From the UHGV virus genome UHGV-0140727: a stretch of 30,803 nt of DNA; one strand, given 5' to 3'. The first letter of the stretch is position 1, and each line of letters opens with the position of its first letter. The notes below the pieces were generated by a model. The model had not been told where the DNA came from. It ran no database searches and was given only the letters and a program-made list of their open reading frames with translations. This document shows, piece by piece, positions 11,205 to 21,534 of the stretch. Source of the stretch: a virus. Both the position numbers and the translations under genes were made by a program.

Positions 11205-12821
11205 TCAACGTCTAAGCCCCTCATATGGGTTTCCTCTCACTAAGTCTGTGTGAGCACCCATTGATGGTGGCTTGAATAATTTAACTTCGTTAAGACTGTT
11301 GAAAGCATCACTGGTAGCATCCACTTGGTCATCTTTAGTTTTGCCATCACCACAAAAGCCTTCAAGCTCTTGAAAGTAAGCTTCGTTCCAACTACCTCTC
11401 AAGACTTTTACAAGTCCAGCTTCAGAAGCAGCAGAAAATCCCGCAAAGCGGGTAACTTTATCTTTATTTGTTGGTTTAGCTCTTGCACGATAGCCTTTCT
11501 CGGCAAGTTTCCTGATGAGGGATGTTGCGTAGGATTTACCAGCAGCGCCTGGGTCTTGAGGGATAAAAATACCAGTTCGCTTACCGTCACTTTCAGCAGT
11601 CAAATTAATTTGTGTTTCGACTCCAGAGGGTCTATCTCTAAATCTTACTACATCAATGATATAATAGCAACCGTCTTTTTTAGATTTACCCATCTTAACA
11701 CCTGCTGTCCAGTCTGGGTTAGGGTTAATCTCAGATGGTAAAGTTGCTGCTAAGTCCCATGCTCTAACATCAAATACATCTTCTGGGAGTGAATCAACAA
11801 TCTCACACCATTGTCTTTGCCAGTAGTTTGAACCTTCTGCACGAGCCTTCCAGTTACCGAAACGAAGTCTTGCAACGTTTACAGGAGTGTTGTTTTCCAA
11901 CTTACCACGGTACTTAGGCTCTAAGAAGTCAAGGATTGGGTTATCATCAATCGTACCAGAGATGAAGGTGTATGTTTGAGGAATCTCAAGAGGGAACATT
12001 TCAAGAATCTTGTCTCTCTCCCAATCAGACACCATCACACCATCATTCATTACATACCAACGAATACGACCACACTTTTCAGGGTCTGGGTAACCTTCTT
12101 CATCTAAGAATGGCTCTACCCAATCATAAATAAAATGGTCTCTGTCTGGGTTCATGGAAATCTTCATGTATGAATCACCTTCAGCACCAGAACGTAGACG
12201 GGTTTGTAGGTATGAAATCTGTGAAGCAGAGAAGTGTGTACCTTCGTCAAAGTAAATAGCTGAGTATTCAATACCCTGATGACCTTCAGCGTGCTTTTCA
12301 AGTTCTAGGTAGGTAAACTTGATAGTTGCCCCAGAAGGGAATGTGATAGTCATTTTCTGCTCGTGAGGAATCCCACCAAACTTACCAAATAGTTTCTTTG
12401 CAGCAGGCCATAAACCACCTTGTAACTGTGTTGTATTTCGACGGAAATATACAGCATTATAGTTAGGGTCTTCAATAAATCTTAAAGAGTCCATTAACAA
12501 TGCGGCAGTTTTACCAGCACCAGCAGCACCACCATAAAGAACCAAGTCAGCATTAGTGTTTAAAAAGACCTCTTGAGAACCCGGCTGAGGGGCTACATAG
12601 TTCTTATCAGTCATCAATTTAAAGATGAGGCGAACTTGGTCTGGTGTGTATCTTAATAAAGTCAGAATTTGAGTTGGAAGGAATTTAGAGGGGTCTTTAC
12701 CGAATGATTTGATAATTTCTTTTACTTCATCAGAAAGCCCCAACTCTCCAGCTAGGACTTTCCTAACATCTTCCACTCGCTTCTGCTTAACAGCATTTAA
12801 GTCCATTAAGCACCTCCGCAA
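11205..12821 (-). CDS. Terminase large subunit
   Basis: 538-aa ORF with a Walker A P-loop (LYGGAAGAGKTAAL) in the N-terminal ATPase region and an acidic C-terminal nuclease-like region, followed by the portal gene. Confidence 0.8.
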   Translation of the reverse strand: MRRCLMDLNAVKQKRVEDVRKVLAGELGLSDEVKEIIKSFGKDPSKFLPTQILTLLRYTPDQVRLIFKLMTDKNYVAPQPGSQEVFLNTNADLVLYGGAAGAGKTAALLMDSLRFIEDPNYNAVYFRRNTTQLQGGLWPAAKKLFGKFGGIPHEQKMTITFPSGATIKFTYLELEKHAEGHQGIEYSAIYFDEGTHFSASQISYLQTRLRSGAEGDSYMKISMNPDRDHFIYDWVEPFLDEEGYPDPEKCGRIRWYVMNDGVMVSDWERDKILEMFPLEIPQTYTFISGTIDDNPILDFLEPKYRGKLENNTPVNVARLRFGNWKARAEGSNYWQRQWCEIVDSLPEDVFDVRAWDLAATLPSEINPNPDWTAGVKMGKSKKDGCYYIIDVVRFRDRPSGVETQINLTAESDGKRTGIFIPQDPGAAGKSYATSLIRKLAEKGYRARAKPTNKDKVTRFAGFSAASEAGLVKVLRGSWNEAYFQELEGFCGDGKTKDDQVDATSDAFNSLNEVKLFKPPSMGAHTDLVRGNPYEGLRR

Positions 12822-12827
12822 ATAGAA

Positions 12828-13028
12828 TTATTCAGAGTCTGTAGCAGTCTCTTCTTTCTTAACTTCGAACTTTGCATCAACAGCATCAAGAAGTGCATCC
12901 ATAGATGCTTCTTTAATATCAATACCTGTTGCTACAGACAATCTGTCTGCAATTGCCATGATAGTATTCTGCATAAATTCTAGTTTCTTATTAGCTTCAT
13001 AAAGTTCTTTATAAACGGTCTCGCTCAT
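12828..13028 (-). CDS. Hypothetical small protein upstream of terminase
   Basis: 66-aa acidic ORF ending 7 nt before the terminase start. Too small and featureless to call a small terminase subunit. Confidence 0.4.
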   Translation of the reverse strand: MSETVYKELYEANKKLEFMQNTIMAIADRLSVATGIDIKEASMDALLDAVDAKFEVKKEETATDSE

Positions 13029-13064
13029 TATGTTTTCTCCAAACAGTTAACCATGTTTCCCCTT

Positions 13065-13088
13065 AAAAAAGACGGTACAGAGACCGTC
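13065..13088 (-). terminator. Putative intrinsic terminator (minus strand) between the tRNA array and the packaging genes
   Basis: Perfect hairpin gacggt-acagag-accgtc (13071-13088) with A6 on the plus strand at 13065-13070, which is a U-run after the hairpin on the minus transcript. Confidence 0.4.
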
Positions 13089-13250
13089 AAGGAGAAACCA
13101 CAATGTACGTCAGAGACATACTGTATAAGGCTTCTTATAAAGTATAACTCTGTAAAAAAGCCCTGTCTAAAAATACTCTTCGGTAGCGAAAGGAAGAATA
13201 CTGATAGCAGGGCATTATTATTATTTTAATTGAGAGAGAGTAAAATAACT

Positions 13251-13326
13251 TGGAGAATCCGAAGGGACTCGAACCCTTATAAACCTGTTTTGCAGACAGG
13301 CACATAGCCATTTCTGTCACGGATTC
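13251..13326 (-). tRNA. tRNA-Cys (anticodon GCA)
   Basis: Hand fold on the minus strand: perfect 7-bp acceptor (gaatccg/cggattc), T-arm AAGGG-ACTCGAA-CCCTT on the plus strand, anticodon stem CCTGT/ACAGG with loop CUGCAAA, CCA encoded. Confidence 0.75.
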
Positions 13327-13330
13327 AAAT

Positions 13331-13423
13331 TGGAGGAAGATACCAGACTTGAACTGGTACACCGATTTCTCAGCTACTGGCAGTTTAGCAAACTGCTCCC
13401 TTACCTTTTAGGGTTAATCTTCC
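13331..13423 (-). tRNA. tRNA-Ser (anticodon GCU), type II
   Basis: 93 nt. Perfect acceptor (GGAAGAT/ATCTTCC), T-arm ACCAG-TTCAAGT-CTGGT, anticodon stem GCAGT/ACTGC with loop UUGCUAA, long variable arm, CCA encoded. Confidence 0.7.
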
Positions 13424-13424
13424 A

Positions 13425-14159
13425 TTATTTCTGTAATGCGTTCTTCATTTCTGGTGTTGCAATAGTGTCAATTACACCAGTTTTACAAGCATCATCAAAC
13501 CAGTCTGGTAAGATACCTGCTAAGAACCCATTGATATTCGTTTTAAGGTACTCTGCAATAAGGGCAGCTTCTTCTTCAATCATCTGCACAACTTCATCTG
13601 CATAAGCTGTAATCTTTGAGATACCTTCATTAATCTTACTGACAGCTTGGTTAGCTAAATCAGAAACAGTATCAAGACCCTTATCAATAGCATCTTGTAA
13701 GTCACTTAACACACCATTAACACTATCTAGTGTACTGTTAATCATGTCAATAGCTTTTTGACCATACTCTGTAGCAACACCCATAATACCACTGAATGGT
13801 GTACAACCAACTTGTTCTCCTGCTGCACCCATAACATTGGAGTATCCCTTTGCTACCTGCATACGTGATGAAAACTCATCAATAGACTTTTGACCGTAGT
13901 CTGTTAAGGTCTTAGTGGTTGCTGTAGTGCTTGTCAGGCTTGTTGTAAAGCTGTTTAGAAGGACTGTTGTAAGCCCAGCAGCAACAAGTTTCTCCTTCAT
14001 TGTAGGGTCTGTTACAGAGCTAATAGAGCTTACAAGTGATGTAGAGGCAGATACGGTTCCACCGAGAACTGCTGCACCAGTAATAAGTGGGTTAGAAAAC
14101 CCTTTACCGGTTTTTAAGAGATTAAAAATCTCCTTACCTTGTTCTGTCATCTCTTTCAT
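13425..14159 (-). CDS. Hypothetical Ser/Thr-rich protein embedded between tRNA genes
   Basis: ORF track gives 13425-14222, but the first 21 codons overlap a tRNA. The internal ATG at 14157-14159 has an AAAGGTG ribosome-binding site upstream. The protein has a low-complexity Ser/Thr-rich segment and a helical C-terminal half. Confidence 0.45.
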   Translation of the reverse strand: MKEMTEQGKEIFNLLKTGKGFSNPLITGAAVLGGTVSASTSLVSSISSVTDPTMKEKLVAAGLTTVLLNSFTTSLTSTTATTKTLTDYGQKSIDEFSSRMQVAKGYSNVMGAAGEQVGCTPFSGIMGVATEYGQKAIDMINSTLDSVNGVLSDLQDAIDKGLDTVSDLANQAVSKINEGISKITAYADEVVQMIEEEAALIAEYLKTNINGFLAGILPDWFDDACKTGVIDTIATPEMKNALQK

Positions 14160-14176
14160 TAAGCACCTTTGAAATT

Positions 14177-14244
14177 GGTAGCCCAGTGGGATTTGAACCC
14201 TCTTCTCATGTTTTTCAGACACGCGCTTTAACCATATAAGCTAC
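14177..14244 (-). tRNA. tRNA-like, probable tRNA-Phe (anticodon GAA), atypical D region
   Basis: T-arm (GAGGG-TTCAAAT-CCCAC), anticodon stem-loop CGTGT-CUGAAAA-ACATG and a 7-bp acceptor with two G-U pairs are present. No convincing D-stem could be folded and CCA is not clearly encoded. Ends approximate. Confidence 0.4.
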
Positions 14245-14257
14245 TTGGACTATAAAT

Positions 14258-14333
14258 TGGGGTGACCTACGGGATTTGAACCCGTATAGACCATGTTCAC
14301 AGCATGGGTCATTACCATTTATGATAAGGCCAC
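14258..14333 (-). tRNA. tRNA-His (anticodon GUG)
   Basis: T-arm ACGGG-TTCAAAT-CCCGT (sense), anticodon stem CCATG/CATGG with loop CUGUGAA, 7-bp acceptor with one G-U pair, discriminator C, CCA encoded. Confidence 0.7.
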
Positions 14334-14364
14334 ATTTAAGGACTCTCGTAAGAATCCTTAGAAG

Positions 14365-14440
14365 TGGCAGCGGCATAAGGATTTGAACCTTAATAAGACA
14401 GCTTCAGAGACTGCTGCATTGCCAGTTATGCTATACCGCT
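14365..14440 (-). tRNA. tRNA-Gln (anticodon CUG)
   Basis: T-arm TAAGG-TTCAAAT-CCTTA, D-stem GCAT/ATGC, anticodon loop CUCUGAA on a stem with two terminal G-U pairs, 7-bp acceptor, CCA encoded. Confidence 0.55.
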
Positions 14441-14445
14441 AAATT

Positions 14446-14516
14446 TGGTACTCCATATCGGATTCGAACCGATACATAACACAGATTTTAAGTCTGGCCT
14501 CTCTGCCAATTGGAGT
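14446..14516 (-). tRNA. Compact tRNA-like gene, anticodon UAA (Leu-type anticodon, no long variable arm)
   Basis: 71 nt. Clean T-arm ATCGG-TTCGAAT-CCGAT, 6-bp acceptor plus mismatch, CCA encoded. The only anticodon-like loop is CUUAAAA on a 4-bp stem; the D-stem is 3-4 bp and shares nucleotides with the anticodon stem. Atypical. Confidence 0.4.
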
Positions 14517-14526
14517 AATGGAGCAT

Positions 14527-14602
14527 TGGCGGGGGATGTTGGAATTGAACCAACTTCTTCGATTTCAAAGACCGAGGTTTTAACCTTGTAAACTAATCCC
14601 CT
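14527..14602 (-). tRNA. tRNA-Gln (anticodon UUG)
   Basis: T-arm GTTGG-TTCAATT-CCAAC, D-stem GTTT/AAAC, anticodon stem TCGGT/ATCGA with loop CUUUGAA, 6-bp acceptor plus a terminal mismatch, CCA encoded. Confidence 0.65.
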
Positions 14603-14610
14603 TTAAATCT

Positions 14611-15168
14611 TTACTTTCTCAGTGGATGAATAAAGAATGCCAACATAACTCTTTCCCTTGAGAATGCTCTTTCTTCTGGGACAACACTTTTTAGTTTCCA
14701 TCCAATATAAATTCTCCAGTAAAACTGTTTACCAAAGACTTTAATTGATGGTATAAAAGCGAATAATCCCCAAGCATTACTGTTCCACATTAGGAGATAA
14801 CCAGTCTGATTATCTTCAGGGTCAGAACTTACGTTGATATTACCTTTCCACTTAGTCACATCTTTTACATCTCTTCCTAATACATGGTAAGAGAAGTTAT
14901 AAGCTTTGTTTCTCCAGAGCCATCCAACTCTCTGCATGTAGACACCCAGCTTACCAATCTTTCTAATCTTAGCCCATCTTTTAACGTGGCCTTCATCACC
15001 ATCAATTGGGTTGTCATATGTCTCCATCCATCTGAACCCGAAAGGTAAGTGTCCTTTCTTCTCACTGTAGAATGGAACTACGAAAGGTGCTAAGATAACT
15101 GCTAGTATTGCTGCAAGTGGTTCTAGCAAAGCTAAGAAAATCCATGAAGCATATTTTAAGTATCTCAT
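14611..15168 (-). CDS. Hypothetical membrane protein (N-terminal transmembrane segment) inside the tRNA array
   Basis: 185-aa ORF with a hydrophobic N-terminus (WIFLALLEPLAAILAVILAPFVVPF). Its start overlaps the stop of the upstream 80-aa ORF in ATGA fashion (15165-15168). Confidence 0.5.
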   Translation of the reverse strand: MRYLKYASWIFLALLEPLAAILAVILAPFVVPFYSEKKGHLPFGFRWMETYDNPIDGDEGHVKRWAKIRKIGKLGVYMQRVGWLWRNKAYNFSYHVLGRDVKDVTKWKGNINVSSDPEDNQTGYLLMWNSNAWGLFAFIPSIKVFGKQFYWRIYIGWKLKSVVPEERAFSRERVMLAFFIHPLRK

Positions 15169-15407
15169 TGTCTAACCCTCGTAAGGAGGTAAGCATTATT
15201 ACTTGTTTCTGAGCTTTCTGGTAACATTGTCTCAAAATTGACACTTTTAAGTTGTCTTCCACCAAAGCAATGACCAATAAATCTTTCTACTTTTATTGGG
15301 TCGCATTCCCATCCGACTTTTAAGAAAATGTGGGTATCTATAGTGGGAACCCTTACAAACTCAATACTATTGGGATTTTCATGTTCAACGACGATTAATG
15401 TTTGCAT
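15165..15407 (-). CDS. Hypothetical protein, first gene of a two-gene operon inside the tRNA array
   Basis: 80-aa ORF with an AGAGGA ribosome-binding site 5 nt upstream of the ATG at 15405-15407, translationally coupled to the downstream membrane protein. Confidence 0.45.
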   Translation of the reverse strand: MQTLIVVEHENPNSIEFVRVPTIDTHIFLKVGWECDPIKVERFIGHCFGGRQLKSVNFETMLPESSETSNNAYLLTRVRQ

Positions 15408-15425
15408 AAATTCCTCTTGCTTATC

Positions 15426-15501
15426 TGGCGCAGGATAAGGGATTCGAACCCATACTAACAGTTTCGTAGACTGTTGCTCTATCCATTTGAACTAATCCTG
15501 C
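15426..15501 (-). tRNA. tRNA-Arg (anticodon ACG)
   Basis: Perfect 7-bp acceptor (GCAGGAT/ATCCTGC), T-loop TTCGAAT, perfect anticodon stem ACAGT/ACTGT with loop CUACGAA, CCA encoded. Confidence 0.75.
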
Positions 15502-15615
15502 TTACCTACGAGAACACCATACAGTTTTTCACAAACTTTGTTTTTACGTCTGTTTAGATATGACGCTCTAAACTTTTTTGCGATGGACTTATCACTCATA
15601 GTGCTCTCCTAAAAT

Positions 15616-15693
15616 TGGTGTTCCAAGACGGATTCGAACCGTCACTAATACAAGGTTTGAGCTTGCATCCTCTGCCAATTGGGATACTGGAAC
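15616..15693 (-). tRNA. tRNA with anticodon CAA (Leu-type anticodon, short variable region)
   Basis: T-arm GACGG-TTCGAAT-CCGTC, 7-bp acceptor, discriminator A, CCA encoded, anticodon stem GCAAG/CTTGT with loop CUCAAAC. Variable region is only about 6 nt, so it is not a canonical type II Leu tRNA. Confidence 0.5.
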
Positions 15694-15694
15694 A

Positions 15695-15769
15695 TGGTAC
15701 TCACTAAAGGACTTGAACCTTTTTCTTCATCTTGTAAGGGTGATGTTTTACCATATAAACTAAGCGAGT
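15695..15769 (-). tRNA. tRNA-Val (anticodon UAC)
   Basis: T-arm AAAGG-TTCAAGT-CCTTT, D-stem GTTT/AAAC, anticodon loop CUUACAA on a stem with one mismatch, 7-bp acceptor with one G-U pair, CCA encoded. Confidence 0.65.
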
Positions 15770-15864
15770 GTGAAAGAGGTCTGAAGTTGTGCCGCTAACT
15801 CAACTCCGTGGAATTTGTTACGGTCTTCAGTTGACACCAGCGGTCTTTCACTTGACCCCTGAAT

Positions 15865-15940
15865 TGGTGCTCCCACAAGGATTCGAACCCTGATAAGTTG
15901 CTTACAAGGCAACCGTAATAGCCAATTATACGATAGGAGC
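15865..15940 (-). tRNA. tRNA-Thr (anticodon UGU)
   Basis: Perfect anticodon stem GTTGC/GCAAC with loop CUUGUAA, T-loop TTCGAAT, 7-bp acceptor with one G-U pair, CCA encoded. Confidence 0.75.
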
Positions 15941-15946
15941 ATTATT

Positions 15947-16021
15947 TGGAGCATCCAGAGGGAATCGAACCCTCAACCTCAGTTTGGAAGACTGTAATTT
16001 TCCCGTTTAAACTATGGATGC
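15947..16021 (-). tRNA. tRNA-Gly (anticodon UCC)
   Basis: Perfect acceptor (GCATCCA/TGGATGC), T-arm GAGGG-TTCGATT-CCCTC, anticodon loop CUUCCAA, CCA encoded. Confidence 0.7.
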
Positions 16022-16027
16022 ACTAAT

Positions 16028-16103
16028 TGGTGGAGTCACTGAGAATTGAACTCAGTTCCCAAGTTTGCAAAACTCGAATTTTAACCATATAAACTATGAC
16101 CCC
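16028..16103 (-). tRNA. tRNA-Ala (anticodon UGC)
   Basis: T-arm CTGAG-TTCAATT-CTCAG, anticodon stem CGAGT/ACTTG with loop UUUGCAA, acceptor with one G-U pair, CCA encoded. Confidence 0.65.
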
Positions 16104-16109
16104 ATTTTT

Positions 16110-16185
16110 TGGTACAGGTGGAGGGAATTGAACCCATCGTCTTACTGATTAAGAGTCAGCCGCATAACCATTTTGCTACACCTGC
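16110..16185 (-). tRNA. tRNA-Lys (anticodon CUU)
   Basis: T-loop TTCAATT, anticodon stem GCTGA/TCAGT with loop CUCUUAA, 7-bp acceptor, CCA encoded. Confidence 0.6.
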
Positions 16186-16192
16186 ATTAATT

Positions 16193-16270
16193 TGGTAGGA
16201 GACAAGGGATTCGAACCCTCAAACATCTCGTTCTAAGCGAGATAGGTTTACCAATTACCATCAATCTCCC
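16193..16270 (-). tRNA. tRNA with anticodon UAG (Leu-type anticodon, short variable region)
   Basis: Perfect anticodon stem TCTCG/CGAGA with loop CUUAGAA, T-loop TTCGAAT, D-loop with a TTGG signature, discriminator A, CCA encoded. The 5-nt variable region makes it a type I architecture despite the Leu anticodon. Confidence 0.55.
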
Positions 16271-16352
16271 ATTAAATCTTTTTAGAGAACTTCTAAGAAC
16301 CTAAGCAACAAGGTTCCACAACAAGCTGTAATAACCTTAGAAGCCCTCTAAA

Positions 16353-16371
16353 AAGACCTAAAAAGGTCTTT
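16353..16371 (-). terminator. Weak hairpin, terminator-like, inside a 250-nt tRNA-free spacer
   Basis: Hairpin aagacc-taaaaa-ggtctt flanked by A/T runs on both sides (16350-16354, 16369-16371). Orientation ambiguous. Confidence 0.3.
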
Positions 16372-16527
16372 GCATAGTCTTGTTTAATCCGGTGACTAGA
16401 ACCTTTGGAGAGCTTGATATTATCTCTTCTCCGTGACACCTACTAGGTGCTTTATCAGTGCGTACAACAATACACGCGGTATACCAAAGCAACATCCGAA
16501 TGAAGCTTGGCTTTAAATCTTATTAGG

Positions 16528-16615
16528 CGGTAAGTAAAGGAGTCGAACCCTCACCGTATCTCTACAGTGGCAACAGTTTTCAAGACTGTTTGGCTGCCAT
16601 TAGCCGCTACCTACC
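16528..16615 (-). tRNA. tRNA-Ser (anticodon UGA), type II
   Basis: 88 nt. Perfect anticodon stem ACAGT/ACTGT with loop CUUGAAA, long variable arm, T-loop TTCGACT, 7-bp acceptor with one G-U pair. CCA is not encoded. Confidence 0.65.
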
Positions 16616-16628
16616 CCTAATAAGACTT

Positions 16629-16711
16629 TGGCATGGGACGGAGGAGTTGAACCCCTTTGAAACGGTTTTGGAGGCCGTTGCTCATGCCTTAGAGTCTTAA
16701 CATCGTCCCAT
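16629..16711 (-). tRNA. tRNA-like, probable tRNA-Trp (anticodon CCA) with extra nucleotides between acceptor and D-stem
   Basis: Perfect 7-bp acceptor (ATGGGAC/GTCCCAT), CCA encoded, T-loop TTCAACT, anticodon loop CUCCAAA. About 10 nt lie between the acceptor and the D-stem where 2 are expected. Confidence 0.45.
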
Positions 16712-16848
16712 ACTATAATTCGAAGCTTACCCTGTTATCTCAACACTGTCAAGCTTCTTCTCAGATTATTTACATGTTCTGGAAAACATGAGATACAGAC
16801 CACCTCCCTACAGGAAGACCCGCTAAGGCCGTCTAAGTAATCTGCTAA

Positions 16849-17196
16849 CTAATACTTTGCATGTCTTACCCTATGGCAATTTGAACATAGCAAAACACAT
16901 TTGTCAAGTTCATCTTTTAGTTCTTGAGAGAACTTCAGACTTTTTCTATGACCAATGTTAAAATCTTTCTCTGAAGGATTCAAATGATGGAAGTCATACA
17001 CTGCTGGATGATACCTTTTACCACAATCATGACAAACCCCACCTTTGTACTCAATAGCTGAAAGTTTAAGTGCTCTTTGTCTTTCTATGGTTTGCTCATT
17101 AACACACTTTTTACAGTATGAATGAGTTCTCTTACCATCTTTCATGTAGAAATCATTTTCATCCTTGCTAAGTTTGCACCTAATACAAGTTTTCAT
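16849..17196 (-). CDS. HNH endonuclease (homing-endonuclease-like) embedded in the tRNA array
   Basis: N-terminal CxxC...CxxC zinc-finger-like cysteines, then the HNH signature (DFHHLNPSEKDFN ... CSNCHRVRH). ORF track start at 17247 overlaps a tRNA; the ATG at 17194-17196 has a GGAG ribosome-binding site 5 nt upstream, giving 115 aa. Confidence 0.75.
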   Translation of the reverse strand: MKTCIRCKLSKDENDFYMKDGKRTHSYCKKCVNEQTIERQRALKLSAIEYKGGVCHDCGKRYHPAVYDFHHLNPSEKDFNIGHRKSLKFSQELKDELDKCVLLCSNCHRVRHAKY

Positions 17197-17210
17197 GATT
17201 TCTCCAAAAT

Positions 17211-17292
17211 TGGTCGAGGCGGCAGGACTCGAACCCGCATACTCCACTTACTCGGTTAACGGCGGTTTAGAAGACCGCTGAGATACGCCCCG
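17211..17292 (-). tRNA. tRNA-like gene, anticodon unresolved (candidate loop CUUCUAA would give Arg UCU)
   Basis: Clean T-arm GCGGG-TTCGAGT-CCTGC, 7-bp acceptor with one G-U pair, CCA encoded. A perfect stem GCGGT/ACCGC carries loop CUUCUAA, but the remaining nucleotides do not give a canonical D-arm and variable arm. 82 nt. Confidence 0.4.
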
Positions 17293-17540
17293 TAATTATC
17301 TTTAAAGACTCTCTTAGAAAGCCCTTAGAGATGCCCACCTTATTAATCATACCGTGGGCTAGTACGCCAAATTCTTTGATGAGGGATTGGAAGACCTCAC
17401 TGGTGTTTAGCCTATCAAGCTACTGCCAGAAAAACATTGTCGTTTGCATTTATTTTAAATTTGCAAAATAGACGCTACGCAACGAAAACTAAGGTTACTA
17501 TAAAGTAGTCACATCTCAATGTCAACAACTTTATTGAAAT

Positions 17541-17615
17541 TGGTTGTAGGTGAGGGTATCGAACCCTCTTCTAACGGTTATCAGCCGTTTGCATTACCAT
17601 TTATGCTAACCCACA
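17541..17615 (-). tRNA. tRNA-Ile (anticodon GAU)
   Basis: Perfect D-stem GCAT/ATGC, perfect anticodon stem AACGG/CCGTT with loop CUGAUAA, T-arm GAGGG-TTCGATA-CCCTC, CCA encoded. Confidence 0.75.
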
Positions 17616-17617
17616 AT

Positions 17618-17694
17618 TGGAGGTTCAGATGGGAATCGAACCCACATTCATAGGGCTTATGAGACCCTTGCATTACCTTATCTGCGACTGAACC
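17618..17694 (-). tRNA. tRNA-Met (anticodon CAU; elongator or Ile2-type not distinguishable)
   Basis: Perfect acceptor (GGTTCAG/CTGAACC), anticodon stem AGGGT/GCCCT with loop CUCAUAA, T-loop TTCGATT, CCA encoded. G1-C72 pair argues against an initiator. Confidence 0.65.
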
Positions 17695-17698
17695 ATTT

Positions 17699-17774
17699 TG
17701 GTAGAAGTGGAGGGATTCGAACCCATCGCCTGTCAGATTAAAAGTCTGCCGCATCACCATTCTGCTACACTTCC
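17699..17774 (-). tRNA. tRNA-Lys (anticodon UUU)
   Basis: T-loop TTCGAAT, anticodon loop CUUUUAA, 7-bp acceptor, CCA encoded. Confidence 0.65.
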
Positions 17775-17916
17775 ATTAAATTATATTTGTAGATAAGCTA
17801 CCCAGACTTGCTTAAGGTCTGTAGCGATGTGTCTTTTCGGGTTAAATCTAGAATCTACCCTTCCACCTTTGTGGTCGCATACTCACAGGTAAGCTTAATA
17901 ACTTATCTACAAAGAT

Positions 17917-18057
17917 AATTACCAGACCGTTGTTTATCATCTTAAGTGCTACCATTACACCAACTCGACATCTGCCGAGTGAAGGAATCGAACCTTCGCC
18001 TTTTCTTTACCGGAGAAATAGATTGTTTAAGTTTTGCTGTAAACGGTCTTCTGTAAA
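17917..18057 (-). ncRNA. Structured RNA element A: conserved bulged closing helix enclosing a permuted tRNA-like module (Y-RNA-like candidate)
   Basis: Sense strand: 5' TTAC-AGA-AGACCGTT (plus 18040-18055) pairs with 3' AACGGTCT-G-GTAA (plus 17920-17932). Between them, in order: T-arm GAAGG-TTCGATT-CCTTC (plus 17971-17987), a 7-bp acceptor-like hairpin closed by a 4-nt loop (plus 17953-17970), and a D-arm-like GTGTAATGGTAGCAC (plus 17936-17952). No anticodon arm. Confidence 0.45.
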
Positions 18058-18063
18058 TTTGTT

Positions 18064-18145
18064 GAGCCAGACCAAGTTTTAAATTTTTCAAAATTAAATT
18101 GGCTTGAAAATATCATACGTACTTGCTGTATTTGGTCTTCTGCTC
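18064..18145 (-). ncRNA. Structured RNA element B (paralog of A, C, D)
   Basis: Same helix architecture with compensatory changes: outer GAGC/GCTC, 5' AGA opposite 3' G, inner AGACCAA/TTGGTCT, conserved TACAGCAA at the start of the enclosed loop. Confidence 0.4.
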
Positions 18146-18203
18146 CTTTAAAGGATACTCGTAAGAACCCTTTAAGGGAGGGGCTAAATAGCCCTCTCAA
18201 AAT

Positions 18204-18281
18204 TGGCGGTTACGAAGGGATTTGAACCCTCATCATCTCCCGTGACAGGGGAGTATTTTAACCAAATTAAACTACATAACC
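18204..18281 (-). tRNA. tRNA-Asp (anticodon GUC)
   Basis: Perfect anticodon stem CTCCC/GGGAG with loop CUGUCAC, T-loop TTCAAAT, acceptor with one G-U pair, CCA encoded. Confidence 0.75.
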
Positions 18282-18286
18282 TTTAT

Positions 18287-18374
18287 TGGTGTGCCGTGTA
18301 GGAGTCGAACCTACCGAGTCTCAATGACAAGGGATTTACAGTCCCCACCGCTACCATCTACGGGATAACGACAC
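18287..18374 (-). tRNA. tRNA-Tyr (anticodon GUA), type II
   Basis: 88 nt. Anticodon stem GGGGA/TCCCT with loop CUGUAAA, long variable arm, perfect T-stem GTAGG/CCTAC, 7-bp acceptor with one G-U pair, CCA encoded. Confidence 0.7.
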
Positions 18375-18383
18375 ATTTAAATT

Positions 18384-18460
18384 TGGCGGTTAGTCAGGGA
18401 TTCGAACCCTGTGCCATTCGCTTAACAGGCGACCGCACATACCTTATGTGCTTCCTAACC
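18384..18460 (-). tRNA. tRNA-Asn (anticodon GUU)
   Basis: Perfect D-stem GCAC/GTGC, anticodon loop CUGUUAA, perfect T-arm CAGGG-TTCGAAT-CCCTG, CCA encoded. Confidence 0.7.
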
Positions 18461-18470
18461 ATGTTTAGTA

Positions 18471-18543
18471 TTACCAGACCGTATCTTTCAATTTTTTCCG
18501 CTAAAAATTTAATAAATATTGCTGTAAACGGTCTTCTGTAAAT
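18471..18543 (-). ncRNA. Structured RNA element C (paralog of A, B, D)
   Basis: 5' strand is identical to element A over 24 nt (TTTACAGAAGACCGTTTACAGCAA). It pairs with 3' ACGGTCT-G-GTAA (plus 18471-18482): outer TTAC/GTAA, inner AGACCGT/ACGGTCT, enclosing about 40 nt. Confidence 0.4.
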
Positions 18544-18544
18544 T

Positions 18545-18621
18545 TGGAGGCGGGTGCAGGAGTCGAACCTGCCGATACCATGCTAATGAGACATGTGAGA
18601 CGCCCTTTCTCTATACCCGCA
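18545..18621 (-). tRNA. tRNA with anticodon CAU (Met, initiator or Ile2-type not resolved)
   Basis: Perfect T-arm GCAGG-TTCGACT-CCTGC, D-stem GAGA/TCTC, anticodon loop CUCAUUA (U at position 37 is unusual), 6-bp acceptor with a 1-72 mismatch, CCA encoded. Confidence 0.55.
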
Positions 18622-18629
18622 ATTCTTAA

Positions 18630-18709
18630 TGACCAGACCAAATCTCTTCTATGTCCGATTTACCTTCAGATGAATAAGATTAAGTTTGCTGTAATTGGTC
18701 TTCTGTCAA
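18630..18709 (-). ncRNA. Structured RNA element D (paralog of A, B, C)
   Basis: Outer helix TGAC/GTCA, 5' AGA opposite 3' G, inner AGACCAA/TTGGTCT, conserved TACAGCAA at loop start, enclosing about 50 nt. Confidence 0.4.
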
Positions 18710-18712
18710 AAC

Positions 18713-18790
18713 TGGCGTTCCAGAAGGGATTTGAACCCTCAAATATCCACTTTGAAAGAGTGGTGACTTTACCATTTTGTCTACTGGAAC
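18713..18790 (-). tRNA. tRNA-Glu (anticodon UUC)
   Basis: Perfect acceptor (GTTCCAG/CTGGAAC), perfect anticodon stem CCACT/AGTGG with loop CUUUCAA, T-loop TTCAAAT, CCA encoded. Confidence 0.75.
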
Positions 18791-18797
18791 ATTAATT

Positions 18798-18874
18798 TGG
18801 TCTCTGTTGGAGGACTTGAACCTCCGGCCTTACCGCCCCAAACGGAACGCTCTACCAAGCTGAGCTAAACAGAG
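18798..18874 (-). tRNA. tRNA-Pro (anticodon UGG)
   Basis: Perfect acceptor (CTCTGTT/AACAGAG), perfect D-stem GCTC/GAGC, perfect T-arm GGAGG-TTCAAGT-CCTCC, anticodon loop UUUGGGG with G37, CCA encoded. Confidence 0.7.
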
Positions 18875-19039
18875 ATAAACTTTTCAAACTCTATGTAACC
18901 ACTTTAACATTATTTTTTAGTGATTGTCAAGAACTTTTTTAAAATATTTTTCAGTATCTTAGAAAAGCTCTCATTTCGTTTCTATGTAGAACATATTAAA
19001 GGGTATTAAACACATTGTCAATACCCTTTTTAAAACTTT

Positions 19040-20455
19040 TTACCAGATATAACGGTCAATCATTACTGCTTTGAGCATTACGCTGATTGGGTCAAACTTC
19101 TCACCACCAAGCAGAGCTTTTAAAGTGGCTGGAGAGAAACCAGATACCATTGCTACACCGTTATCCTTAACAGATACTTCGCAAGTACCGTTACGGTTTG
19201 CTAAGTACCAGAATACCAGTTGTGGCATTTCGTATCCAGCTTTTTTGTACTTACTCTGGATTGCTTCAAAGTTTGTACGACCGTTAGCTCCATCAACCTG
19301 ATTGAACTCCATATCGGAGAAGATGATAAGCTTACTTGGCATATCTTTCTGAGTCAAGTTGTTTCTTTTACCTGTCTCAAGAATACGGTCAAAAGCTGCT
19401 TGTAAGTTAGTTGAGCCATATTCAACGTGTCGCATCACCTGACGATGACGGTTTCGTAAATCACCACTCAGTTCGATGAAGTGAGGGTTTGTTGAATAAA
19501 CCATTAACTCATTCTTAAAGCAACCTGTATTGCGTTCTGCTACATACAAGGCAAGTGATACACCAATATCCAGAGCAGTAATGGAGCCAAAATTCACCCA
19601 AGACATTGAACTTGATACATCAGACATACACAAGATGTTTTCACCTTCTGCCATCCAGTTTGGTAGTGCTTTCCACTGCTCATTAGCAACATCTGCATTA
19701 CCATACTTGACAGATTTAATCACATCGTATGGGTAAACAGCACCAGCGTTAATCTTAGTCTCACCTTTTGATAAGGACTCGATGTAAGCTTTGTAACGCT
19801 CTCCATCTTTACGGTTAAACAGTTTTTGGTAACGTGCAGCAGCAAGTGAAGGAATCTTACTGTAGTCAATCTTACCAAACTCATTAGCAGAGATTTTTTG
19901 CTCAACTGTATCAGATAGTGCAGACAACAGTGTGCGGTACTCTTTCTCACTCAAGTTGGCAAACTTGCAGAAACGTTTTACAAACTGCTTATGACGTGGT
20001 TTGACTCGTGGTAACCACTTAGCCGCCAAACCTGCTGTTGCAGGGTCTAGTAATGCTGCTTCTAAATGTTTGAAGGCATCTGTCTCGAAACGAGTACCTA
20101 CGAAGATTTTGAAGTCATCAAAACGACCAAGTTCTGCAATCTTATCCATAATGCGAAGAACCTGCGTAGACTCTAAAACTTTGTCTTCAATTGCTTGAAG
20201 CAAAACAGTTCTGAAGGCTTTACGCTCACCCATACCTTCTCGTACATCTCGCATATGAAGCAAAATACGAACTGCAACATCAACATCCTCACGCAAAGCT
20301 TTGTAGAACAGGTCTGGTAAGATTTCTACGTTGCTACGGCTTGAACCAGCAGCTTTGTAAAAGTCTACAAGAGCAGACATTGATGAAGTATGGTTTACAG
20401 CACCATTTTCAGTTCGACCTGCATGAAGGTACGCATGTTTAAATAATTCGCTCAT
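19040..20455 (-). CDS. vWA-domain protein with a helical N-terminal domain; Ro60/Rsr-like (TROVE + vWA) architecture, DUF2828-like
   Basis: 471-aa ORF. The C-terminal half has the vWA MIDAS signature in order: DxSxS (LCMSDVSSSMS), a downstream GSTN threonine, and LIIFSDME. The N-terminal ~250 aa is predicted helical. The TROVE assignment is inference from architecture and context, not from a search. Confidence 0.55.
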   Translation of the reverse strand: MSELFKHAYLHAGRTENGAVNHTSSMSALVDFYKAAGSSRSNVEILPDLFYKALREDVDVAVRILLHMRDVREGMGERKAFRTVLLQAIEDKVLESTQVLRIMDKIAELGRFDDFKIFVGTRFETDAFKHLEAALLDPATAGLAAKWLPRVKPRHKQFVKRFCKFANLSEKEYRTLLSALSDTVEQKISANEFGKIDYSKIPSLAAARYQKLFNRKDGERYKAYIESLSKGETKINAGAVYPYDVIKSVKYGNADVANEQWKALPNWMAEGENILCMSDVSSSMSWVNFGSITALDIGVSLALYVAERNTGCFKNELMVYSTNPHFIELSGDLRNRHRQVMRHVEYGSTNLQAAFDRILETGKRNNLTQKDMPSKLIIFSDMEFNQVDGANGRTNFEAIQSKYKKAGYEMPQLVFWYLANRNGTCEVSVKDNGVAMVSGFSPATLKALLGGEKFDPISVMLKAVMIDRYIW

Positions 20456-20487
20456 ATTTTACTCTCTTCTCTCATTTGTTGTTTGAT

Positions 20488-20523
20488 GTGACAGACTTTA
20501 GAGCAACTTTGTATAGTCTGTCA
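20488..20523. promoter_or_regulatory. Perfect 9-bp inverted repeat between two minus-strand genes
   Basis: tgacagact (20489-20497) and agtctgtca (20514-20522) separated by a 16-nt loop, lying between the stop of the 123-aa ORF and the start of the vWA-protein ORF. No flanking U-run, so it is not a classical terminator. Confidence 0.4.
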
Positions 20524-20536
20524 ACACCTTTTAAAA

Positions 20537-20908
20537 TTATTTTTTGAGAGTTGCTACAGCAGAGAACGTTGGTTTGTTATCTGTCTGTTGTTGACCACCA
20601 TTATCAGGAGTCTTCTTAGTGTCTGCTGCAAGTGCTTTCATCTCACCTGCTGAGTGAGTAAAGATAGTTTTACCTACCTCAATCATGCTCTTGATGGTTA
20701 CGTCGTCTGTGTTTAACCCGAACTCTGCAAGCTTAGCAGCGTCCCTTGTAACAATCGCCTCAAACAACTTTGCAGCAAACTCAGCAGAATTATCAATGGT
20801 CAGTTGAGCTTTTACAAGTGAGCTTTTGTTACGAGAGCCTTTTGGTCTTCCAGATGGGTTTCCAGATTGGCCTTTTTTAAACTGGCCTTTGTTTGTTCTG
20901 TTTTTCAT
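20537..20908 (-). CDS. Hypothetical basic protein with N-terminal GNPSGRPKG motif (DUF5681-like; possible DNA-binding or small-terminase-like)
   Basis: 123-aa ORF with a Lys/Arg/Gly-rich N-terminus (KGQFKKGQSGNPSGRPKGSRNK). First gene of the minus-strand unit, next to the divergent intergenic region. Confidence 0.5.
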   Translation of the reverse strand: MKNRTNKGQFKKGQSGNPSGRPKGSRNKSSLVKAQLTIDNSAEFAAKLFEAIVTRDAAKLAEFGLNTDDVTIKSMIEVGKTIFTHSAGEMKALAADTKKTPDNGGQQQTDNKPTFSAVATLKK

Positions 20909-21157
20909 TGGTATGCCTCTTATAAGACCTCTTAAAAGGCTTTTAAGATAAAAGATAGATATCCAGAAAGATATCTGTTTAAATAGCCTTTTTAGAGGAA
21001 CCTTTTAAGTTATCTTCTAAGTATTTATAAGCCTACACCTTGTCAAGTACTTTGTCAACAACTTTTTTAACTTGCAATAGTTCTTGACTTGTTGTATGGA
21101 TTACTGTACCATCTTACTTAAAGCTGTAGGTCTGCCTTGTTCTACAAAGGAGACTTA
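20909..21157. promoter_or_regulatory. Divergent intergenic control region (candidate promoters and operator palindromes)
   Basis: 249-bp AT-rich gap between divergently oriented gene blocks. It holds a perfect palindrome AGATATC-cagaaa-GATATCT (20953-20972), a CTTAAAAG-GC-TTTTAAG palindrome (20930-20946) and several TTGTCA/TTGACT -35-like hexamers (21041-21091). Promoter calls are not precise. Confidence 0.4.
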
Positions 21158-21319
21158 ATGAGAAAATCAAATAAACCGAAGAAAGGTAAGAATACCAATC
21201 ACTGTAAGGAATCAAAAAGGGTAGAGTTAATCTACTATTCATCCTCTGAAATTGGTCTGTACCTGTTCTTTCAAAATTACAGAAGACAAGAGGATTATCT
21301 ATGTGTAGTTCCCAATTAG
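21158..21319 (+). CDS. Hypothetical small basic protein
   Basis: ATG at 21158 is preceded by AAAGGAG with a 4-nt spacer. The ORF track's longer version uses a TTG at 21137. Lys-rich N-terminus. Confidence 0.4.
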   Translation: MRKSNKPKKGKNTNHCKESKRVELIYYSSSEIGLYLFFQNYRRQEDYLCVVPN

Positions 21320-21534
21320 AAATCGCAGATATTATAGATTTATATCAAACTGCAAAGAGTCATGGCTATATAACCTCAATTGGAAAGAATAGTCACTATG
21401 ATGCTTTGACTGGAATGTATTTCAGGGCAATGGCTCAATCTAGTGAACAACACTTAATGGTTTCTTCCAGTGAGTTTACTTCGTTTCTCTATTGCAGCAA
21501 AATTATAAATCGCAGGAGAACTGAAAAATGTTAA
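21301..21534 (+). CDS. Hypothetical protein
   Basis: 77-aa ORF with an AAGAGGA ribosome-binding site upstream, overlapping neighbours by a few nucleotides. Confidence 0.4.
   Translation: MCSSQLEIADIIDLYQTAKSHGYITSIGKNSHYDALTGMYFRAMAQSSEQHLMVSSSEFTSFLYCSKIINRRRTEKC

Follow-up and report, generated by a model that had tools for sequence, protein, structure and literature searches.

Three protein-coding genes are embedded in the transfer RNA (tRNA) array of the virus genome UHGV-0140727, analysed here as a single stretch of 30,803 nucleotides (nt), hereafter the window, and all three are genuine phage genes under purifying selection. They encode proteins of 80, 185 and 244 amino acids, the second of which belongs to Pfam family DUF7338 and the third to DUF7217. 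A sequence-only reading of the window had placed these open reading frames (ORFs) between tRNA genes, had proposed that they are co-transcribed with the tRNAs and released by tRNA processing, and had called their functions unknown. That interpretation is supported overall. Co-transcription with the tRNAs is the most likely arrangement and, as judged from sequence features and from transcription timing in Felix O1, a well-supported one. The functions have been narrowed, to the envelope for DUF7338 and to a helical, tape-measure-like protein for DUF7217. A joint explanation, in which the three ORFs are genes of a tRNA operon, DUF7338 is an envelope factor with the 80-amino-acid protein as its partner, and DUF7217 is a helical bundle with an about even chance of being present in the virion, is considered somewhat probable.

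The embedded genes and their transcription

The window belongs to the genome of a Felix O1-type myovirus (Ounavirinae, Felixounavirus) and shares 96-98% identity with about 200 phage genomes. The segment 13200-15600, used as a megablast query, matched 292 phage records, some 200 of them at 95-99% identity and nearly all from Felix O1-type phages of Escherichia, Salmonella and Shigella. The gene order is that of Felix O1, namely portal gene, large terminase gene, tRNA array and early region, and all 25 tRNA genes share the minus strand with the three embedded ORFs. The coordinates given by the sequence-only reading proved exact for all three, as did their strand and their position between tRNA genes (Table 1). 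The 80-amino-acid ORF and the DUF7338 ORF were said to be translationally coupled, and indeed the stop codon of the first overlaps the start codon of the second by 4 nt (ATGA). Each ORF has a ribosome-binding site of its own, as had been claimed: AGAGGA for the 80-amino-acid ORF, GAGGG, 7 nt upstream of the start codon, for DUF7338, and AAAGGTG, preceding the ATG, for DUF7217. A longer version of the DUF7217 ORF in a mechanical ORF list, with a GTG start at 14222, was dismissed, as this codon is inside tRNA-Phe.

The DUF7338 family (PF24027) matches residues 1-184 of the 185-amino-acid product with 211.1 bits, against a Pfam gathering cut-off of 27, and DUF7217 (PF23854) matches residues 8-243 of the 244-amino-acid product with 292.8 bits, against a cut-off of 29. 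The corresponding PHROGs families are phrog_2143 and phrog_2114, respectively. The 80-amino-acid product matches phrog_14202 (E 6.5e-40), and a Pfam search with it returned no match. The nonsynonymous/synonymous ratio is low, at 0.02-0.14 (DUF7338), 0.03-0.17 (DUF7217) and mostly 0.25-0.38 (80-amino-acid ORF), and in each related locus where one of the three ORFs occurs, its reading frame is unbroken. It is the curated family matches, the intact reading frames, the low ratios and the constant position that together identify them as genuine genes.

Conservation in related phages is strong for DUF7338 and DUF7217, each of which has homologues in hundreds of phage records. In Felix O1, where they are ORF48 and ORF49, and in about 200 Felixounavirus orthologs, the proteins are 95-99% identical and the flanking tRNAs are the same; Felix O1 and its relatives also agree with the window in the gene order that starts with the Ro60-like gene and ends with the large terminase gene. 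A comparison of gene order in 27 Felix-type loci revealed a fixed backbone consisting of the Ro60-like gene, tRNAs, DUF7338, the tRNAs Gln/Leu/Gln/His/Phe, DUF7217, the tRNAs Ser/Cys, a 222-nt spacer, a 66-amino-acid ORF and the large terminase gene. The DUF7338 and DUF7217 genes occupy constant slots wherever the sequence of a Felix-type locus covers them. Variable elements are the 80-amino-acid ORF, a 35-amino-acid micro-ORF, tRNA-Arg(ACG), tRNA-Arg(UCU), tRNA-Trp and HNH endonucleases, the last at three sites. Unlike Felix O1 and Bas63, the window has the 80-amino-acid ORF; it also has an HNH endonuclease gene (16849-17247).

The gaps between the ORFs and the adjoining tRNA genes measure 18, 8, 16 and 1 nt, distances too short to hold a separate promoter or terminator, and a scan for terminator-like hairpins between tRNAs and ORFs found none. 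Candidate control elements were predicted around and within the array (Table 1). The sigma-70-like promoter candidate just upstream of the first tRNA is kept, with at most two mismatches, in 22 of the 25 loci in which element conservation was scored. The hairpin around a second promoter-like site (18993-19021) is terminator t42 of the Felix O1 paper (PMC3185647), and the internal candidate at 17497-17525 is the same as P45, a promoter published for Felix O1. Two intrinsic terminators are predicted in the spacer between tRNA-Cys and the 66-amino-acid ORF (13029-13250), whose length of 222 nt is nearly invariant among relatives and whose sequence folds with -66.5 kcal/mol (z-score -6.1 relative to shuffled sequence). 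Part of the first terminator hairpin (13133-13177) is conserved among relatives. The two spacer terminators are not in the terminator table of the Felix O1 paper (PMC3185647). The promoter and terminator elements, all of them predictions, are kept in 22-24 of 25 relatives with 0-5 mismatches, and the junction of DUF7338 with tRNA-Gln(UUG) is kept in all 25 loci with at most two.

Reverse transcription PCR (RT-PCR) on Felix O1 found ORF45, ORF46, ORF48 and ORF49 to be maximal 5 min after infection, while the maximum comes at 25 min for the large terminase gene (ORF52) and at 60 min for ORF51 and ORF53 (PMC3185647). This division matches a transcription boundary at the two terminators, and the data bear on the early transcription of ORF48 and ORF49 only. 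Two observations weigh against the proposed scheme: promoter-like sites in this AT-rich region are no commoner than in shuffled sequence (23 found, 20.9 expected), and the RT-PCR was coarse, the major capsid gene also being scored as 'early' (PMC3185647). The claim of co-transcription is supported indirectly by the spacers of 1-18 nt, the conserved upstream promoters, the terminators after the last tRNA and the Felix O1 timing taken together. That the embedded ORFs use internal promoters of their own, independently of the tRNAs, and are tightly packed for reasons of genome economy, is very improbable. Weak promoter matches (9-10 of 12 positions) do occur on the minus strand at 15224-15195, 14731-14704 and 13750-13722; however, they are inside coding sequence, downstream of the start codons to be served, and matches of such quality are no commoner than in shuffled sequence. 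Besides, the 16-18 nt from tRNA to ATG cannot hold a promoter, and the absence of terminator-like hairpins between tRNAs and ORFs likewise argues against independent transcription.

Mixed tRNA-mRNA operons are represented by the tRNA region of phage T4, with its interspersed ORFs, by the thrU-tyrU-glyT-thrT-tufB operon of Escherichia coli and by the 'tRNA punctuation' of mitochondria, and tRNA maturation in E. coli proceeds by RNase P and RNase E cleavage. The T4 tRNA region and the tufB operon serve as precedents for the window, where by analogy with E. coli tRNA maturation the ORF messages may be released by the same two enzymes. Host RNA polymerase would make a polycistronic tRNA-mRNA precursor early in infection. 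Promoter candidates at 18930/19021 and 17525 and predicted terminators at 13213-13154 and 13088-13065 bracket the tRNA block, the terminators separating it from the 66-amino-acid ORF and the late terminase and portal genes. RNase P would cut the 5' end of each tRNA and thereby leave only 8 nt behind the stop codon in the DUF7338 message and 1 nt in that of DUF7217, and RNase E-type cleavage directly behind the encoded CCA ends would produce leaders no longer than 18 nt in which the Shine-Dalgarno sequence is retained. Messages processed in this way would have no protective 3' hairpin, which points to early, short-lived expression or to expression from the unprocessed precursor. The tRNA arrays of virulent enterobacterial phages may serve as recombination-prone sites with early expression, at which accessory genes and homing endonucleases accumulate. 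As in the known mixed operons, the coding sequences of the window share the strand of the tRNAs, and a common transcript and nuclease-defined mRNA ends would be further points in common. The window differs from them in its extreme packing, with 1 and 8 nt from stop codon to tRNA, and in having its ORFs flanked by tRNAs on both sides. The arrangement is an ordinary mixed tRNA-mRNA operon of large virulent phages, unusually tight.

DUF7338 and the 80-amino-acid protein

The DUF7338 protein consists of an N-terminal membrane helix and an alpha/beta domain of about 150 amino acids, with an isoelectric point (pI) of 9.9 and 10 Trp residues. Its earlier description as a membrane protein agrees with a single hydrophobic helix at residues 6-36. 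The AlphaFold model, with a predicted local distance difference test (pLDDT) score of 94, has a long helix at residues 2-33 followed by a compact alpha/beta domain. Invariant in an alignment of 31 homologues are T50, D52, G57, W83, W85, R86, N87, Y90, R152, G156, W157 and K158. Homologues in which the helix is preceded by three basic residues and followed by an acidic stretch point to an N-in/C-out topology, in which the domain is periplasmic. DUF7338 is thus predicted to be a signal-anchored, single-pass, N-in/C-out inner-membrane protein with a conserved periplasmic domain. No solved structural relative of this domain was found, and its fold is unlike that of T4 holin T. For DUF7338 and DUF7217 alike, PDB sequence searches were empty, NCBIfam gave no useful match and none of the papers in the collection searched mentions either family; the main text of the PhageMaP paper gives no value for the Bas63 genes 153 and 159. 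An apparent domain fusion of DUF7338 with Gp53-like_C (P0034) was rejected, as it is found on a 1.2-kb contig and is probably chimeric.

The gene neighbourhoods of DUF7338 fall into two types. Homologues of 55-98% identity are found, with one exception, on the tRNA strand, either inside tRNA clusters or 20-1100 nt downstream of them. These tRNA-linked copies occur in Felixounavirus, Hafnia phage Zyzzx, Av-05, RB43-type, JS10-type and S16-type phages and two further T4-type groups, and amount to about 4-5 independent placements when the T4-type phages are counted as one or two events. Nucleotide homology between the lineages runs from ATG to stop only. Joint transfer of DUF7338 with a particular tRNA was rejected for this reason, the flanking tRNAs not matching either. 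The recurrence of DUF7338 on the same strand downstream of tRNAs in several lineages, together with homology that excludes simple travel with one tRNA, could be taken to mean that the protein has a role in tRNA or translation biology, perhaps as a counter to a membrane-associated anticodon nuclease, and that its location is more than a permissive slot with early expression. However, DUF7338 relatives of at most 42% identity have no same-strand tRNA within 10 kb, a periplasmic location, as predicted for the domain, accords poorly with a tRNA substrate, and HNH endonucleases and micro-ORFs have accumulated in the arrays at varying sites too, which is what a general insertion hot spot would show. 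Such a role is regarded as extremely improbable.

The second type of neighbourhood is encountered among homologues of 31-48% identity. Of their roughly 15 distinct contexts, about 7 have the gene immediately adjacent to a lysis cassette. DUF7338 is located between tail-fibre genes and a holin/endolysin/spanin set in five loci (L095, L101, L058, L059 and L070). In a lambdoid phage (L099) it follows the spanins and precedes the terminase genes, and in a jumbo phage (L061) its neighbour is a GH19-like enzyme. The endolysins beside these homologues represent five families (GH108, GH24, M15_4, M23 and GH19-like), and the holins represent the Pfam families Phage_holin_2, _3_7, _4_1 and _8. These neighbourhoods suggest that DUF7338 is an accessory envelope factor connected with lysis and phage entry, one that probably tunes lysis timing in an antiholin-like manner or blocks superinfection. 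Virulent enterobacterial phages would retain its gene within the tRNA operon, which is expressed early. Several points weigh against a connection with lysis: it is drawn from relatives of only 31-48% identity, about half of the distant contexts are unrelated to lysis (with an RNA polymerase subunit or primase gene adjoining), and the endolysin of the present phage is about 8.5 kb away on the other strand. A more far-reaching proposal is that DUF7338 is a previously unrecognised, widespread family of lysis-cassette accessory proteins, acting as signal-anchored periplasmic sensors or regulators like the T4 antiholin RI, or as exclusion factors, which moved repeatedly into tRNA operons for immediate-early expression in Felix O1-, T4- and rV5-type phages. 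This proposal is put forward tentatively and is rather unlikely to hold in full.

Another explanation of the same features is that DUF7338 is itself the holin of the phage, a class III protein like T4 T with one helix and a large periplasmic domain that makes the lethal membrane lesion. The label 'holin' is attached to it in vB_Si_DR094, P54, HP1 and other GenBank records, and the single N-terminal membrane helix with a large C-terminal domain, as well as the distant homologues adjoining endolysins and spanins, would fit such a role. Felix O1-type phages have no established holin so far, and the Bas63 annotation lists none at 40-80 kb. On the other hand, no Pfam holin matched even at E<=1, profile comparison (hhalign) with the T holin of JS10 gave a probability of 0.4%, and PHROGs gives the family no function. 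The flanked lysis cassettes already have canonical holins of four Pfam families, and T4-type phages with DUF7338, JS10 among them, also have gene t. The conserved periplasmic domain with many invariant polar residues is unusual for holins, and the Felix O1 ortholog is transcribed at 5 min (PMC3185647), not late. By sequence and profile comparison, DUF7338 is unrelated to T4 holin T; overall, the holin explanation is improbable, and DUF7338 is taken not to be the holin itself. The 'holin' label fails the tests of sequence, profile, fold and timing and should not be propagated. Felix O1-type phages are used in Salmonella typing and biocontrol. Separately, the particle proteome of phage Sf14 contains a 'holin or lysozyme' protein, gp55 (PMC11821841).

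As an envelope protein, DUF7338 can be compared with two groups of known phage factors. Like T4 holin T and antiholin RI, it has a predicted short cytoplasmic N-terminus, one helix and a globular periplasmic domain, and its distant members adjoin lysis genes. It differs from them in having no sequence, profile or fold similarity to either, in co-existing with T, and in the early transcription of its Felix O1 ortholog. The T4 proteins Imm and Sp and the T5 protein Llp are early envelope proteins that exclude superinfecting phage. DUF7338 would resemble these as an early, dispensable, envelope-located accessory protein encoded in a variable region of a virulent enterobacterial phage. No homology of DUF7338 to them was found; Imm has two membrane helices, and Llp is a lipoprotein.

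The 80-amino-acid product is a soluble protein of 9.2 kDa with a pI of 5.9, two Cys residues and no hydrophobic segment. Its gene is present in 12 of the 27 Felix-type loci and in 70 phage records, all Ounavirinae-type, and is immediately upstream of DUF7338 in the gene-order loci, where this was checked. Alleles are 44-100% identical, and the length stays at 79-80 amino acids even at 44-50% identity. The gene is dispensable, since Felix O1 and Bas63 do without it. The simplest reading is that it encodes a fast-evolving, cytoplasmic accessory partner coupled to DUF7338.

DUF7217

The DUF7217 protein has a predicted mass of 25.7 kDa, a pI of 4.5, an all-helical structural model and a Ser/Thr-rich N-terminal half. 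The Ser/Thr-rich character already pointed out for it amounts to 20% Ser+Thr overall and 38% in residues 25-100. Two Cys residues are invariant, a motif G-x-x-F-x-N-P-L is conserved, and no hydrophobic segment of membrane grade was found. The family comprises 189 clusters at E<=0.001 among 1.84 billion representative proteins. DUF7217 matches tape-measure PHROGs families, and long tape-measure proteins in turn match the DUF7217 profile, a local similarity of helical repeats; longer proteins that contain DUF7217 either have no second Pfam domain or are tape-measure proteins. DUF7217 is accordingly proposed, from model and profile comparison, to be a soluble, acidic helical-bundle protein related to tape-measure repeats. 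As a tape-measure protein proper it was rejected, being of 244 amino acids and next to the large terminase gene, with only local repeat similarity. In contrast to tape-measure proteins it is encoded outside the tail gene block and cannot set a tail length of 113 nm, and Felix O1 has a tape-measure candidate of its own, Gp67.

The position of the gene differs between phage groups. In Ounavirinae-type phages, DUF7217 invariably stands at the end of the tRNA array, ahead of the large terminase gene, while its Ackermannviridae homologues (25-29% identity), annotated as structural, have the major capsid gene on one side and the gp3 tail-completion gene on the other. This annotation exists because of ORF129 of phage LIMEstone1 (25.03 kDa), which was found by virion mass spectrometry with 2 peptides and 18% coverage, and for which the authors report a structural counterpart in phage ViI. 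The DUF7217 homologue at the ORF129 position has 25-29% identity over 96% of its length. Whether the Felix-type protein is also in the virion is about even. Points that weigh against its presence there are its absence from the stringent whole-virion protein list of Felix O1 (PMC3185647) and from the particle table of Sf14 (PMC11821841), the lack of any PDB chain below E 0.1 although virion models of Bas63 and Sf14 have been deposited, the 2 peptides on which the identification of ORF129 rests, and the early transcription of Felix O1 ORF49, which fits a virion protein poorly.

Most of these points are shared by the alternative that DUF7217 is an early, non-structural helical protein, such as a host-takeover or membrane-associated factor, and that the mass spectrometry hits in Ackermannviridae reflect co-purification. 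This alternative is given slightly less than an even chance. Transcription of the Felix O1 ortholog at 5 min (PMC3185647) agrees with it, as does the location of the gene ahead of the terminators dividing the tRNA block from the late genes, and rIIB, ligase and PhoH were likewise 'detected' in the LIMEstone1 data. The 18% coverage of ORF129 is, however, well above that of these three proteins, and the ViI counterpart, the place of the Ackermannviridae gene between major capsid and gp3 tail-completion genes, and the links to tape-measure proteins all favour a structural role. So does a helix-rich density on the tail needle of Bas63 and Sf14 to which no protein is assigned. Cryo-electron microscopy of both phages describes this density as a helix-rich, threefold tail-needle cap (Bas63, PMC12609058; Sf14, PMC11821841). 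DUF7217, a conserved helical protein for which the virion models of these phages have no place, may be a candidate for this trimeric cap, a suggestion held to be less likely than the proposed accessory role of DUF7338 in lysis.

The Felix O1 paper mentions 'Gp49' as a 51-kDa virion band and possible sheath (PMC3185647). This was rejected as a reference to the DUF7217 protein, the product of ORF49 being of 25.7 kDa and the sheath gp63 of 48.9 kDa. The statement, which is repeated in the structural list of the abstract (PMC3185647), is probably a numbering slip and was set aside as evidence.

Other features of the locus and significance

The features of the array and its surroundings are listed in Table 1.

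Table 1. Positions of genes, tRNAs and predicted control elements in and around the tRNA array of the window
Feature	Position	Strand	Basis or remark
66-amino-acid acidic helical ORF	12828-13028	-	Immediately upstream of large terminase gene
Second intrinsic terminator (predicted)	13065-13088	-	GACGGUC...GACCGUC + UUUUUU; upstream of 66-amino-acid ORF and large terminase gene
First intrinsic terminator (predicted)	13154-13213	-	Long GC-closed hairpin + UUUUUU, after last tRNA
tRNA array, 25 genes	13251-18874	-	ARAGORN; Rfam tRNA matches; order common to 27 Felix-type loci
tRNA-Ser(GCU)	13331-13423	-	ARAGORN; begins 1 nt past DUF7217 stop
DUF7217 ORF, 244 amino acids	13425-14159	-	Felix O1 ORF49, NP_944879; bas63_0159; ATG 16 nt past tRNA-Phe; stop 1 nt ahead of tRNA-Ser(GCU)
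tRNA-Phe	14176-14251	-	ARAGORN; ends 16 nt before DUF7217 ATG
tRNA-Gln(UUG)	14527-14602	-	ARAGORN; begins 8 nt past DUF7338 stop
DUF7338 ORF, 185 amino acids	14611-15168	-	Felix O1 ORF48, NP_944875; bas63_0153; stop 8 nt before tRNA-Gln(UUG)
80-amino-acid ORF	15165-15407	-	ATG 18 nt after tRNA-Arg(ACG), behind AGAGGA
tRNA-Arg(ACG)	15426-15501	-	ARAGORN; 3' CCA 18 nt before ATG of 80-amino-acid ORF
35-amino-acid basic micro-ORF, MSDKSIAKKFRASYLNRRKNKVCEKLYGVLVGKQD	15492-15599	-	Perfect AGGAG Shine-Dalgarno sequence
HNH homing endonuclease	16849-17247	-	PHROGs match (phrog_2255); inside array
tRNA-like element	17214-17292	-	Rfam, 31.7 bits, above cut-off; missed by ARAGORN
Internal promoter candidate	17497-17525	-	TTGACA-17-TATAGT; 11/12 consensus positions; inside array
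Sigma-70-like promoter candidate	18901-18930	-	TTGACA-18-TAAAGT, upstream TG; consensus match; just upstream of first tRNA
Second promoter-like site	18993-19021	-	TTGACA-17-TAATAT; consensus match
Ro60-like gene, 471 amino acids	19040-20455	-	Bas63 gp130 counterpart; directly upstream of array

The site of the HNH endonuclease gene carries tRNA-Arg(UCU), tRNA-Trp or nothing in relatives, and HNH genes are found at three different sites of the array or are absent among them, which marks the array as an insertion hot spot. The tRNA-like element at 17214-17292 has an anticodon stem-loop like that of tRNA-Arg(UCU) of Bas63 and an aberrant D-arm region; the GTG start of the HNH ORF falls within this element, and the endonuclease therefore probably begins at an ATG near 17196. 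The tRNA-Arg(ACG) gene is itself variable, being absent from Bas63 and some other relatives. The micro-ORF is located in a 114-bp insert between tRNA-Leu(CAA) and tRNA-Arg(ACG), its stop codon overlapping the 5' end of tRNA-Arg, and is found at full length in 34 Felix-type records (77-100% identity), mostly unannotated. Phage tRNA genes can be 82-95% identical across unrelated families, for example tRNA-Tyr in Zyzzx and Vequintavirus-type phages (L030, L031), and such near-identical genes could act as short recombination anchors.

On the upstream side of the array, the Bas63 counterpart of the Ro60-like gene, gp130, is able to inhibit the Ppl defence system according to the PhageMaP paper, which speculates that some of the 'tRNAs' of the array are Y RNAs. 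A search of 12500-21500 for such a partner returned no match to an Rfam Y-RNA family. On the downstream side, the 66-amino-acid ORF is conserved even in Zyzzx-type phages (32% identity). The small terminase subunit has no recognised representative in Felix O1-type phages. Some database labels appear to be wrong, both among the loci L001-L030 and in the GenBank records GU169904, OK283618 and PV390658: DNA of Felix type is present in 'Staphylococcus phage SA1' (147 kb), the match for 'Listeria phage LPML1' is Hafnia phage Zyzzx, and the Felix-type phage vB_EcoM_P54 has been placed in Tequatrovirus.

The embedded genes are an already known feature: they have been annotated since the Felix O1 genome paper, are present in hundreds of records and now have Pfam DUF families. 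The finding itself therefore changes little, as it concerns a catalogued feature of a well-sequenced phage genus, to which the neighbourhood patterns of DUF7338 and the case against the holin label add modestly. The dual neighbourhood of DUF7338, in tRNA operons of virulent phages and in lysis cassettes elsewhere, could guide experiments. The same holds for the candidacy of DUF7217 as the needle cap, and Bas63 offers a knockout library and a near-complete virion model.

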